Shown here piece by piece: positions 3,263-6,104 of a stretch of 12,802 nt of DNA. Position numbers and translations under genes: made by a program. A model generated the notes under the pieces. The model searched no databases. It was not told the origin of the DNA and saw only the letters and a list, made by a program, of their open reading frames with translations. The DNA is taken from IMG/VR virus record IMGVR_UViG_3300045970_001057. One strand, given 5' to 3'. Numbering within the stretch: position 1 is the first letter of the stretch; every line of letters starts with the position of its first letter. The DNA is from a virus.

Positions 3263-3670
3263 TTATTTTGGTTCCTTATATGTCAAGCCACCAAACCTAT
3301 AATCGGTGGTTATTTTTAGTGCTGAACGTATAGATTCTGCTGTAAATTTGAAACCTTTACCATTTTCATCAACAGCATTTACTGGGAATTTTGGAGCTTT
3401 TGTATTAAGTTCGGTGATTGTGAAATTGACACCTCTGTTTGTGAAGGTTTTACCGATAATGTCTTCTGGCAAATTAAAAATTTGATAAATATAAGAGTCG
3501 TATTTTTTAACTGCATTTACAACTTCAACTTTCATCTTCATTGTGAAGTCATTTTCATTTAATGTTCCACCATTATTTTTAATGGTTACACCGTACTTTT
3601 TTGCGATGTTTTCTAATGCGATTTGTGATTCTTCTGCGATTTTCTTGGCTAAGTTTTTATCAAATGACAT
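3263..3670 (-). CDS. Hypothetical protein, 135 aa
   Basis: ORF with an ATG start. The conserved promoter element lies 28 nt upstream. Confidence 0.75.
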   Translation of the reverse strand: MSFDKNLAKKIAEESQIALENIAKKYGVTIKNNGGTLNENDFTMKMKVEVVNAVKKYDSYIYQIFNLPEDIIGKTFTNRGVNFTITELNTKAPKFPVNAVDENGKGFKFTAESIRSALKITTDYRFGGLTYKEPK

Positions 3671-3695
3671 AGTATATGTGTTTAATTGTTTAACA

Positions 3696-3726
3696 GTACA
3701 AAGATAAGGAAAAATTTTGATATACC
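3696..3726 (-). promoter_or_regulatory. Promoter. The gene-strand sequence is TTTG-N19-TATCTTTG-TAC, preceded by the conserved upstream block
   Basis: GTACAAAGATAA lies at 3696-3707 on the plus strand. A TTTG sits 19 nt upstream of the box on the gene strand, spaced as a Bacteroidetes -33 element would be. The ATG at 3670 is 28 nt downstream. Confidence 0.6.
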
Positions 3727-3729
3727 AAA

Positions 3730-4314
3730 TTATTTGAAGATTTTTTCTTCAACTAATTCACAAATAATATGACCAATCATAATATGTGATTCTTGAATTC
3801 TTGGTGTGTCACTAGATGGAACATTTATTACATAATCAGATAATTCTTTTAATTTACCTCCATTTTCTCCAGTAAAGGCAACTGTTCTCATACCTCTACC
3901 CTTTGCAGTTTCAAAGGCTTTAATGATATTTGTAGAATTACCAGAAGTAGATAGACCTATTAGTATATCATCTTCCATACCCATTGCTTGCACAAGACGA
4001 GAGTATATTACATCATAAGAGTAGTCATTGGCAACTGAAGTTACATAAGATGTATTTACATGTAATGCTTCTGCATATAGTGGTGGTCTATCAAAATAAA
4101 ATCTACCAGATAGTTCAGCAGCAAGATGTTGAGCATCTGCGGCACTACCACCGTTACCACAAAAAAGAACTTTACCATTATAAAAATAACAATTATTAAT
4201 TAAACTCACTACATTTTCAATAGTTTTAATCAATCTATCATCAGAATAGATTAATTGTTTAACATCTATTGAGTTTTGAATTACATTTTTAATCTTTTGT
4301 TGTATAATGTCCAT
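3730..4314 (-). CDS. gmhA: D-sedoheptulose-7-phosphate isomerase (phosphoheptose isomerase, SIS domain)
   Basis: 194 aa. It aligns over its full length with GmhA (E. coli GmhA is 192 aa). Shared motifs are GKVLFCGNGGSAADAQHLAAEL, GLSTSGNS, TGENGG and RIQESHIMIGHIICE. Confidence 0.85.
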   Translation of the reverse strand: MDIIQQKIKNVIQNSIDVKQLIYSDDRLIKTIENVVSLINNCYFYNGKVLFCGNGGSAADAQHLAAELSGRFYFDRPPLYAEALHVNTSYVTSVANDYSYDVIYSRLVQAMGMEDDILIGLSTSGNSTNIIKAFETAKGRGMRTVAFTGENGGKLKELSDYVINVPSSDTPRIQESHIMIGHIICELVEEKIFK

Positions 4315-4447
4315 AATCTATAAATACTTTTTCAGTAACTGGTTTAACTTGTTTTGATTGAATATCTTTCATATCTTCTTTCTTTTTTGGTATGTGCCAA
4401 TCTACAATATAGTGATGGTCTTTTTGTATTTTTTTTAATCTTTCCAT
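4289..4447 (-). CDS. Candidate small ORF, 52 aa (MERLKKIQKDHHYIVDWHIPKKKEDMKDIQSKQVKPVTEKVFIDYGHYTTKD)
   Basis: Its ATG is immediately adjacent to the TAA of the upstream gene (TAAATG). It fills an otherwise empty 133-nt gap and overlaps the gmhA start by 26 nt in another frame. It falls below the 60-aa cutoff of the ORF track. Confidence 0.3.
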   Translation of the reverse strand: MERLKKIQKDHHYIVDWHIPKKKEDMKDIQSKQVKPVTEKVFIDYGHYTTKD

Positions 4448-4753
4448 TTATAAATTATATTTTCTACGATCGTATTCTTCTTTTAATTCTTCGGCATATT
4501 TCCAAAAACTTTCTATCGGCACCCAATTTTCTTCTTCTTCTTTAAATTTTGTATATGTAGTTTCACCAACATGTCGTCTATCACCAGTTGACCAAATTCC
4601 TTTATCTTCAACATAATGTACAGAACCTTCGTTTATGAAGGTGACCCTATCTACCCAATGATATGATCTGTGAGCCGTTATGGTTTTATCAGCCTTTTTA
4701 TACCAATATCTACTACCAAATTCATTTAACCAATATGTTTTATCTTCTTCCAT
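4448..4753 (-). CDS. Hypothetical protein, 101 aa, Trp/Tyr-rich
   Basis: ORF with an ATG start. It lies 29 nt downstream of the 4783..5211 gene on the same strand. Confidence 0.75.
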   Translation of the reverse strand: MEEDKTYWLNEFGSRYWYKKADKTITAHRSYHWVDRVTFINEGSVHYVEDKGIWSTGDRRHVGETTYTKFKEEEENWVPIESFWKYAEELKEEYDRRKYNL

Positions 4754-4782: not shown

Positions 4783-5211
4783 TTATTTTGTTGACTTTTT
4801 TGTGTATTTCCTTTTTGGCTTTTCAACAACAGTTTCTGTTTTTTCTTTGTATATTTTAGCTGCTTTTTTTAATACTTTATTTGGTTTTGATGGAGTTGCT
4901 ATCGCATTAGCAAAAATAATTGCATCTTTTTCAGATACTAAAATTGTAGCATTTTTAGTTTTTGGTGCTGTAGCCTTTTTAGTTTTTGGTGTTGTAGTCT
5001 TTTCAACTTTAGGTTTTTTCTCAGCAACTTTATGGTACGGACGAAATTCTGTAATTCCTAATTCTTTAAGACATTCTGCACAATATATTGTGCTGTAATC
5101 ACGATCAGGTACATGTGCCACAAATAAATCTTTTGCATCAAAAAATTCAATACATCCTGAACAAACATGTTTTGTTGATTTTGTTTTTGCTACTTTTTTA
5201 GGATATGCCAT
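4783..5211 (-). CDS. Basic protein with an N-terminal CxxC...CxxC zinc ribbon and a Lys/Pro/Thr/Ala-rich histone H1-like tail. Putative nucleic-acid-binding protein
   Basis: HVCSGC and YCAEC are spaced about 27 residues apart. The C-terminal half contains KTTTPKTKKATAPKTKNAT-type repeats encoded by a 24-nt tandem repeat. The conserved promoter element lies 24 nt upstream. Confidence 0.7.
   Translation of the reverse strand: MAYPKKVAKTKSTKHVCSGCIEFFDAKDLFVAHVPDRDYSTIYCAECLKELGITEFRPYHKVAEKKPKVEKTTTPKTKKATAPKTKNATILVSEKDAIIFANAIATPSKPNKVLKKAAKIYKEKTETVVEKPKRKYTKKSTK
4946..5004. repeat. In-frame 24-nt tandem repeat, about 2.5 copies of GTAGCMTTTTTAGTTTTTGGTGYT, inside the basic-tail coding region
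   Basis: Copies lie at 4946-4969 and 4970-4993, with a partial copy at 4994-5004. They encode the PKTKKATA repeats of the minus-strand protein. Confidence 0.7.
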
Positions 5212-5232
5212 TTGTCTATATTTTTAATTAGA

Positions 5233-5244
5233 GTACAAAGATAC
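5233..5244 (-). promoter_or_regulatory. Promoter core GTATCTTTGTAC (gene strand) for the zinc-ribbon gene cluster
   Basis: GTACAAAGATAC lies at 5233-5244 on the plus strand. The ATG at 5211 is 24 nt downstream. The upstream block is less conserved than at the other copies. Confidence 0.55.
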
Positions 5245-5293
5245 TGCTTTTTATTCAAAAGAAAAAATTAATATATAATTAAAAAATAAAATT

Positions 5294-5827
5294 ATGGAAC
5301 TAATACCTAGCACTAAATTAAAGCCAGAAGACTTTGTTGGATTACTCTATCCTTTTGCAGAATCAACACAAAATGAAACTGGTATATCAGCAATAGCAAT
5401 TTTGGCACAAGCCGCACTAGAGAGTGGCTGGAATTCATCTTCACCAGGTTGGATGTTCTTTGGAGTTAAAGATACTGATGGAATTAATGGAAATGAACAA
5501 TTATTAACAACCACAGAATATAGTCGTAGAGCTGACTTAAAATTTCCTCAAATAATATCAGTAACACCAACAGTAAGAAATGGTCAAAAATATTTCAAAT
5601 ATGTTGTTAAAGACTATTTTAGAAAATATGAATCACCAGAAGAATGTTTTACTGATCATGCAAATTTTCTTATTAGAAATCCAAGATATTCTGCAGCATT
5701 AGAAGTTAAAGAAGATCCTATTGCATTTATAAATGCAATTGCAGTCGCAGGATATGCGACTGATCCAAATTACGCTAAAACACTTACATCTATTTGTAAT
5801 AGAATAAGTGGAATACTTAATTCATAA
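5294..5827 (+). CDS. Peptidoglycan hydrolase of the GH73 glucosaminidase family (mannosyl-glycoprotein endo-beta-N-acetylglucosaminidase domain). Candidate endolysin
   Basis: AQAALESGW matches the catalytic-Glu region of the FlgJ/AcmA type. GYATDPNYAKTL matches the C-terminal hallmark. The protein is 177 aa, consists of the single domain and has no signal peptide. Confidence 0.8.
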   Translation: MELIPSTKLKPEDFVGLLYPFAESTQNETGISAIAILAQAALESGWNSSSPGWMFFGVKDTDGINGNEQLLTTTEYSRRADLKFPQIISVTPTVRNGQKYFKYVVKDYFRKYESPEECFTDHANFLIRNPRYSAALEVKEDPIAFINAIAVAGYATDPNYAKTLTSICNRISGILNS

Positions 5828-5855: not shown

Positions 5856-6104
5856 CTACCGTGGATTTTCCTCCAGATAATTTTCAGGATAATTTTTACA
5901 ATCATAAGGATCAACACCAAGTATTTCTAATGTTTCATCTAATGAGTTTTTATCATGGCACAAATCTAATCTTTGATAGCCAGGTATTCCAAGTATAACA
6001 TAACCTTGGCATAGTTCATAACCAACATAATTCTTACCATCAACATGAGTGTATGGTCTTTTATTTACAAAAAAACCTGTGTTTAAATTAAAAATTTTAT
6101 TCAT
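5856..6104 (-). CDS. Hypothetical small Cys/Tyr-containing protein, 82 aa from the ATG at 6104. The ORF track extends it to a GTG at 6164
   Basis: An ATG at 6102-6104 leaves a 10-nt gap after the upstream gene's stop. The longer 102-aa version would need a GTG start and a 50-nt overlap with the upstream gene. Confidence 0.6.
   Translation of the reverse strand: MNKIFNLNTGFFVNKRPYTHVDGKNYVGYELCQGYVILGIPGYQRLDLCHDKNSLDETLEILGVDPYDCKNYPENYLEENPR

Follow-up and report, generated by a model that had tools for sequence, protein, structure and literature searches.

The stretch of viral DNA analysed here (the window) is 12,802 nt long, comes from IMG/VR record IMGVR_UViG_3300045970_001057 and is AT-rich, with a G+C content of 23-35%. 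Its minus strand carries an open reading frame (ORF) for a 142 amino acid (aa) protein, MAYPKKVAKTKSTKHVCSGCIEFFDAKDLFVAHVPDRDYSTIYCAECLKELGITEFRPYHKVAEKKPKVEKTTTPKTKKATAPKTKNATILVSEKDAIIFANAIATPSKPNKVLKKAAKIYKEKTETVVEKPKRKYTKKSTK, with an isoelectric point of 9.8, and a 100% identical protein is on record at JGI under the label 'hypothetical protein'. The original prediction saw in it a zinc ribbon followed by a histone-like, lysine-rich tail of about 70 residues. The tail is in fact 82 residues long and consists of three parts, a linker (residues 61-89), a module (residues 90-127) and a basic end (residues 128-142), and sequence comparison gives good support for homology between the module and the toxin-neutralising end of Bacteroidota TacA antitoxins. 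The parts of the gene and its product are as follows (related loci and proteins are numbered L001, P0003 and so on in the text):

4783-5211, minus strand: whole ORF, 142 aa, ATG start, stop codon at 4783-4785 (ORF list and translation)
5032-5211, minus strand: basic N-terminal arm (residues 1-15) and zinc-ribbon core as far as R-P-Y-H, together residues 1-60 (relatives, AlphaFold)
5152-5163, minus strand: first knuckle, C17-S-G-C20 (translation; invariant in relatives)
5071-5082, minus strand: second knuckle, C44-A-E-C47 (translation; invariant in relatives)
4945-5031, minus strand: low-complexity linker rich in K, T, P and A, residues 61-89 (composition, AlphaFold)
4944-5003, no strand: 24-nt tandem repeat, 2.5 copies, giving the octads EKTTTPKT / KKATAPKT / KNAT (Tandem Repeats Finder)
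4831-4944, minus strand: TacA/DUF1778-type C-terminal module, residues 90-127 (Pfam, PDB, AlphaFold)
4786-4830, minus strand: basic C-terminal end VVEKPKRKYTKKSTK, residues 128-142, 40% K (conserved in relatives)

Zinc ribbon, linker and tandem repeat

The CSGC...CAEC ribbon was recognised correctly at the outset, as all four cysteines are invariant in 55 relatives, in which P58, Y59 and K61 are near-invariant. AlphaFold places the cysteines in a small beta domain (pLDDT, the model's per-residue confidence, 81-88) with strands at 14-16, 23-25, 29-33, 40-44 and 56-58, which lie around both knuckles, and a helix at 45-51, a model consistent with a generic C4 zinc ribbon bearing two CxxC knuckles on beta hairpins. 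Compared with its two nearest relatives, the gene has 5-7 synonymous and no non-synonymous changes in the ribbon codons, while the linker codons change mostly at the amino-acid level. Residues 1-60 matched no Pfam, NCBIfam or PHROG family, and searches of PHROGs, NCBIfam and PADLOC with the whole protein returned nothing. Two hints of a Stc1 identity for the ribbon, a PDB profile match to 2luy alone (E 0.029) and, among the BFVD matches, a phage 'Stc1 domain' protein in rank 6, were judged too weak and were not used, and a weak Pfam match to SNAPC3 (E ~0.03-0.07) covers the knuckles only and persists in controls in which the module was scrambled.

A profile search with the N-terminal domain recovered ~50 further clusters, and an exhaustive hidden Markov model search of 1.84 billion representatives recovered 100 clusters at E<=0.001, with members of 46-130 aa, none of them annotated. 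The shared core, a basic N-terminal arm, CxxC, ~23 residues, CxxC and a P-Y-x-K-(P-R-K) motif, with the starts of the two knuckles most often 27 residues apart, defines by these searches a family lacking annotation, of ~100 clusters. Beyond the core the tails are basic and very variable in length (median 25 residues, 33% K, 14% T and a median net charge of +0.33 per residue across 141 members) and are built from lineage-specific repeats, such as the octad TAKTKKGT, present four times in P0042, or KEKVV and KKAPV units in other members; one member carries an AT-hook-like KRGRPPK. In P0029, P0032, P0035 and P0040 (for example L005, 6001-6357) a conserved helical domain of ~50 aa (KISEVREWLKKL…LSVKQLRELYK) replaces the lysine-rich tail; by eye it looks HeH/SAP-like, and profile searches of Pfam and the PDB returned no significant match. 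Within the family the module is confined to the sub-clade of the window protein (7 of ~144 clusters), where it has been inserted after the lysine-rich linker, ahead of the conserved KRKY end; close relatives keep the EKPKRKY end with or without it.

Residues 61-142 are 29% K and 63% K+T+P+A, with a net charge of +18. A tail rich in K, P, T and A had been described for the whole of this region; that holds for residues 61-89 and 128-142, which are low-complexity and basic, but not for residues 90-127, which form an ordered-looking helical module. The linker itself (34% K, net charge +8) is predicted to be disordered, evolves fast and is prone to indels between isolates. Residues 70-89 of the linker, the octads, are encoded by the 24-nt repeat, to which Tandem Repeats Finder assigns a period of 24, 88% matches and a score of 99. 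Among 100 dinucleotide-preserving shuffles of the window the best repeat score was 76 (mean 48.9, standard deviation 8.4) and none reached 99, so the repeat, as originally proposed, is real and does not arise by chance. The suggestion that it varies between isolates is borne out to a modest extent, with a 12-nt insertion inside the repeat in L010 and a shortening by 18 nt across this stretch in L001. Relatives with 87-94% identity keep the reading frame and every indel among them is a multiple of three; the original prediction of a real, translated zinc-ribbon protein was correct.

Homology of the C-terminal module to TacA antitoxins

The module runs from a strand (ILV) through a helix (SEKDAIIFANAIA) and a TPSKP linker to a second helix (NKVLKKAAKIYKEKTE), with the two helices at residues 94-105 and 112-127 in the AlphaFold model. 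These predicted elements correspond to the toxin-wrapping region of KacA, in which betaB (52-56), alphaC (57-70), 71-PPAP-74 and alphaD (75-86) wrap the toxin and make the high-affinity contact with KacT (PMC6698736). The homologous stretch within the module, residues 90-122 (4846-4944), aligns with the betaB-alphaC-PxxP-alphaD segment of TacA, KacA and AtaR and shares with them the motif S/T-E-x-D...F...I/L..P..PN..L..AA.

The Pfam model TacA1 (PF08681), which has a curated cut-off of 21 bits, aligns its positions 43-79 of 80 with residues 86-122 of the window protein at 18.3 bits, and the close relatives P0003 (21.1 bits) and P0005 (23.5 bits) lie above the cut-off. TacA1 is the sole Pfam match that recurs, always at model positions 41-80, the C-terminal half, and it is found in all seven module-bearing zinc-ribbon proteins and in eight unrelated carriers, 5 of these 15 exceeding the cut-off. 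When the module within P0005 was shuffled (nine versions) or reversed (one), no TacA1 match remained at E<=1, and the match is therefore not a product of composition. No carrier matched positions 1-42 of the model, the ribbon-helix-helix (RHH) half, and tblastn with full-length TacA matched the window solely over antitoxin residues 55-88. Profile searches of PDB sequences gave the same family: the seven top matches of a profile made from seven module sequences were all DUF1778 antitoxins (1y9b, KacA 5zgn, TacA 7ak9_C, AtaR 6gtq_C/6ajn/6ajm and 7zg5), the best match of a 15-sequence profile was the 36-residue toxin-bound TacA fragment 7ak9_C (E 0.001), and another isolated toxin-bound C-terminal fragment, 6gtq_C, was also among the matches.

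A scan of bacteria and archaea, at one genome per species, found this variant of the motif at two loci only, L020 and L021, both in metagenome-assembled genomes of Bacteroidota. In both the motif is the C-terminus of a full-length 96-aa TacA (73-74 bits) whose gene overlaps that of a 165-167-aa GNAT toxin homologous to KacT, AtaT and TacT (E 7.6e-22 to 2e-11); the gene of the Bacteroidales TacT-like toxin is at 732-1229 in L020. Residues 90-122 of the window protein share 55% identity over 33 aa with residues 55-87 of this Bacteroidales TacA (pairwise E 8e-9). Since the other carriers and the bacterial TacA loci agree, we regard homology between the module and the toxin-neutralising end of TacA as well supported. 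The window protein nonetheless differs from TacA, KacA and AtaR in being encoded by a phage, in scoring below the Pfam cut-off and in its architecture, as the antitoxins have an RHH DNA-binding and dimerisation half where the window protein has its N-terminal zinc ribbon and the lysine-rich spacer, and their partners are the GNAT toxins TacT, KacT and AtaT whereas no toxin gene adjoins the window gene or lies near it. Within the available sequence, that is contigs as distinct from complete genomes, no GNAT was found among the window ORFs, and tblastn with the Bacteroidales toxin matched neither the window nor any of 41 related phage loci. The 101-aa gene directly downstream was considered as a cognate toxin and set aside, as it has no GNAT features and also follows orthologues that are without the module.

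The module is also present outside the zinc-ribbon family. Searching 5.8 billion proteins with a profile of the 46-column module alignment found eight such carriers (E 1.5e-7 to 0.7), three of which JGI names 'DUF1778 family' and all of which match the C-terminal half of TacA1 at 18-22 bits. Their scaffolds are a CPKC...CC zinc knuckle, short helical N-termini or, in a 42-aa peptide, none, and their contigs, of up to 242 kb, bear arrays of tiny ORFs on the same strand with no GNAT neighbour. A scan of IMG/VR placed the module at 22 viral loci in at least five architectures (small CPKC zinc proteins, 448-505-aa membrane/coiled-coil proteins, short stand-alone peptides of 42-58 aa, an acidic 448-aa protein and the zinc-ribbon family), and a TacT-like gene lay within 2.5 kb at 0 of the 22.

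Two of these architectures recur across many contigs. In L013-L019, L022 and L036-L038 the carriers are 54-82-aa proteins in which a CPKC…CC zinc knuckle is joined to the TacA-like module; their genes belong to long rows of tiny ORFs on the same strand of large contigs, one of them next to a ribosomal L7/L12 gene, and these regions look like phage early regions. In L023-L035, L042 and L043, IMG/VR contigs of up to 270 kb, the module (…LSEKDAEVFFNEIxNPSEPNEAL…) lies in 448-505-aa membrane/coiled-coil proteins, placed in L023-L035 and L043 between an N-terminal transmembrane/coiled-coil region and a conserved C-terminal DGDGTIDGYD…NWxDR…NAVNYW domain, which in L042 is replaced by a long acidic C-terminal region.

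Possible functions of the protein

Because the RHH half and the toxin gene are both missing, we read the protein as an orphan, antitoxin-like factor, and we tentatively favour, at a likelihood slightly short of even, a role in counter-defence through neutralisation of a host TacT-like toxin or another GNAT-fold partner. It would then be an early-type, modular phage protein in which a C4 zinc ribbon specific to the family, with basic arms on either side, is joined, through a disordered lysine/threonine-rich spacer (residues 61-89) generated by slippage-prone 24-nt repeats, to the strand-helix-PxxP-helix segment (residues 90-127) by which TacA, KacA and AtaR wrap and inactivate GNAT tRNA-acetyltransferase toxins. 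After infection the module would bind and inactivate the host TacT-like toxin or GNAT-fold partner, so that the toxin-antitoxin system could not abort the infection; the zinc ribbon and the basic parts would provide a scaffold and perhaps a nucleic-acid anchor, as putative binding of DNA or RNA by the basic arms is plausible. Phage orphan antitoxins have a precedent in counter-defence against DarTG (PMC11257639), and orphan antitoxins have been noted in the leading regions of plasmids (PMC11541004). AdfN and other NADAR proteins, which act against DarTG1, and T4 Dmd, which acts against RnlA/LsoA, are likewise antitoxin-related or mimics and carried by phages without the toxin (PMC11257639), and the window protein resembles such phage orphan antitoxins in being phage-encoded and antitoxin-derived, with no cognate toxin within the available sequence. 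It differs from them in kind, as AdfN is an enzymatic type IV antitoxin and Dmd an unrelated mimic whereas the window protein would be a grafted type II binding segment, and its proposed target family, GNAT/DUF1778, is without a documented anti-phage role.

Several observations weigh against a counter-defence role. GNAT/DUF1778 systems are absent from the known and candidate anti-phage systems in PADLOC, and our literature search found no paper that ties them to phage defence. Type II antitoxins are usually specific, and cross-neutralisation of a host toxin is not guaranteed. The window protein itself falls under the TacA1 cut-off (18.3 against 21 bits), the E-values of the PDB matches are all marginal (0.001-0.1), with YAP1 peptides intruding at 0.011, and the presence of the module within 448-505-aa membrane proteins may mean that it is a broader interaction motif. 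The module also does not explain the core function of the zinc-ribbon family, as so few of its clusters carry it.

In a quite different account, the ribbon, the basic arms and the K/T octads would bind phage or host DNA, or RNA, non-specifically and the protein would condense, coat or regulate the genome in the manner of H1 or Hc1, the module being incidental. The charge and composition of the family tails speak for it, as do the recurrence of T-A-K-T-K-K-x-T octads in divergent members, the AT-hook-like motif of one member, weak matches to the chlamydial HC2 model in 4 of 55 relatives (best E 8.7e-4) and the best fold neighbours, zinc-containing ribosomal proteins with extended tails, although these last are not significant. 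We nevertheless doubt it. The likeness to H1 and Hc1 put forward in the original prediction stands as far as composition goes, as H1 C-terminal tails and chlamydial Hc1/Hc2 share a lysine-rich, low-complexity, repeat-built segment with T-P-K-x-K-K units, but it is not one of homology: the window protein matched no linker-histone, Hc1 or HC2 Pfam model at E<=0.1, its AlphaFold model has a zinc ribbon and no globular winged-helix domain, and its basic repeat part spans just ~29 residues. Minimal members of the family have only ~10 basic residues past the ribbon, and such an account leaves the conserved TacA-like module unexplained; about half of the tail is this module, which points to protein binding rather than DNA condensation. 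A part in genome packaging or in the virion, also suggested at first, finds no support; the promoter motif ahead of the gene is of a host type, and the gene is grouped with small genes rather than with structural ones.

If the module does bind a protein, its partner might be something other than a GNAT toxin, and the TacA-like stretch could be a general short interaction or stability motif that phages insert into many proteins, serving for recognition by Lon or Clp, as a decoy or for docking to a non-toxin. Antitoxins are typically protease-labile, and the 22 viral contigs hold the module in at least five architectures unrelated to one another, including the cytoplasmic parts of the 448-505-aa proteins and the 42-58-aa peptides. 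Many type II antitoxins have a C-terminal region that is intrinsically disordered when the antitoxin is free (PMC6698736). We think a general motif unlikely: all DUF1778 complexes of solved structure use this segment to bind the toxin, its nearest copies in bacteria belong without exception to TacA proteins that have a TacT-like toxin as partner, and no other partner is known. The protein might also act on transcription, with the ribbon binding an operator and the module sensing a phage or host GNAT enzyme, so as to tune its own four-gene cluster; a possibly DNA-binding N-terminus joined to a toxin-binding C-terminus would mirror autoregulating type II antitoxins (PMC6698736), and the gene opens its cluster, with a conserved promoter motif ahead of it. 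Such a regulator seems to us very unlikely, as no locus examined has a GNAT gene and most zinc-ribbon family members are without the module; an inverted-repeat operator was not noticed, and no search for one was made.

Returning to counter-defence, a more far-reaching form of it is possible, though we rate it as rather improbable: TacAT-type GNAT/DUF1778 systems would be an anti-phage (abortive-infection) defence of Bacteroidota, countered by the toxin-wrapping TacA peptide of ~35 residues, which large phages would have grafted onto many carriers (zinc ribbons, stand-alone peptides and membrane proteins) as a portable 'antitoxin cassette'; the window protein would be one of these carriers, and the lysine-rich spacer of variable length may then tether the window protein to nucleic acid or tRNA. 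Were a counter-defence role correct, the protein would be the first phage counter-defence derived from the antitoxin of a type II GNAT system, and it would give indirect evidence for an anti-phage role of this very common toxin-antitoxin family. The module also shows that a short antitoxin segment can be carried from one phage protein to another as a portable cassette, which annotation at the level of domains misses, since the window protein lies under the Pfam cut-off and is labelled 'hypothetical'.

Genomic setting and transcription

The genes and signals around the zinc-ribbon gene are the following:

5232-5244, minus strand: promoter-like 13-nt motif GTATCTTTGTACT, which contains TAnnTTTG, ~25 nt upstream of the ATG
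3730-4753, minus strand: close-packed downstream genes, a 101-aa ORF (4448-4753), a 52-aa ORF (4289-4447) and an SIS/GmhA-like ORF (3730-4314)
5294-5827: glucosaminidase/endolysin-like gene, divergently transcribed
6115-6474, minus strand: cREC_REC (cyclic-phosphate processing receiver) gene, E 1.6e-23
6751-9159, minus strand: 802-aa vault-like protein with a major-vault-protein shoulder (E 1.3e-26) and Vault_3 repeats

When up to 2 mismatches are allowed, GTATCTTTGTACT occurs 5 times in the window, where 0.57 occurrences are expected, and 0 of 200 shuffles reach that number. Three of the sites are on the minus strand at 2577-2589, 3695-3707 and 5232-5244, with weaker ones at 6495-6507 and 8580-8592, and the motif thus also stands ~25 nt upstream of the minus-strand ORFs 1797-2558 and 3263-3670. 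Its TAnnTTTG core, which we take to resemble the Bacteroidota -7 promoter box, is kept upstream of the orthologues in seven loci (L001, L003, L005, L007, L008, L011 and L012), while the plain TAnnTTTG pattern is not enriched across the window and a simple sigma-70 scan of the divergent intergenic region 5212-5293 found no site. No terminator-like sites were found, and the genes of the cluster follow one another without a terminator. With this motif upstream and no terminators before the next three genes, which are close-packed, it is reasonable to regard the gene as the first of a promoter-driven cluster, and that claim is supported in substance. In L008 the promoter motif of the orthologue is immediately preceded, at ~5935-5960, by a GC-rich hairpin with a T run after it (AAACCTTCTTCGGAAGGTTTTTTT), which suggests that the zinc-ribbon orthologue starts a new transcription unit there.

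None of the three downstream genes is a GNAT. The order vault-like gene, zinc-ribbon gene, small genes and SIS gene is kept in the divergent loci L001, L003, L005 and L007; in L008 no vault-like gene was seen, and the zinc-ribbon, 168-aa and SIS genes follow in the same order. A gene for a 160-187-aa product comes directly after the zinc-ribbon gene in 5 of 5 loci (these four and L008), and its products in L001 and L003 look membrane-associated by eye. The SIS/GmhA-like gene, of the sedoheptulose-7-phosphate isomerase type, is conserved in all syntenic loci, where it lies on the downstream side of the zinc-ribbon gene, and may be an auxiliary sugar-modification gene.

The vault-like protein has no match in PHROGs or NCBIfam, and its only full-length homologues in the phage collection (49-52% identity) are in the uncultured phage genomes LR756500 (462 kb) and LR756501/3 (735 kb). 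The 735-kb genome also encodes an 80-aa member of the zinc-ribbon family, which gave the only tblastn match against phage records, confined to the N-terminal part; megablast of the window against the same kind of records found no match. By the homologues of its vault-like gene and by its TAnnTTTG-type motif, the source of the window is probably a huge phage of Bacteroidota, and the zinc-ribbon family of ~100 clusters is linked to a vault-protein-like gene in huge phages. The cREC_REC gene adjoins the vault-like gene in L001 and L003 too.

Elsewhere in the window, the 135-aa ORF at 3263-3670 (minus strand) has a match (E 1.1e-6) to PHROG 497, 'toxin-antitoxin system HicB-like', at that family's C-terminal end, with no support from Pfam or PADLOC, and judged by this match it may be a second antitoxin-related gene. 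In the related loci, synteny is broken by genes resembling GIY-YIG homing endonucleases and IS605 OrfB/TnpB, at 7498-8268 and 15483-16670 in L001 and at 307-1146 and 7286-8485 in L008.

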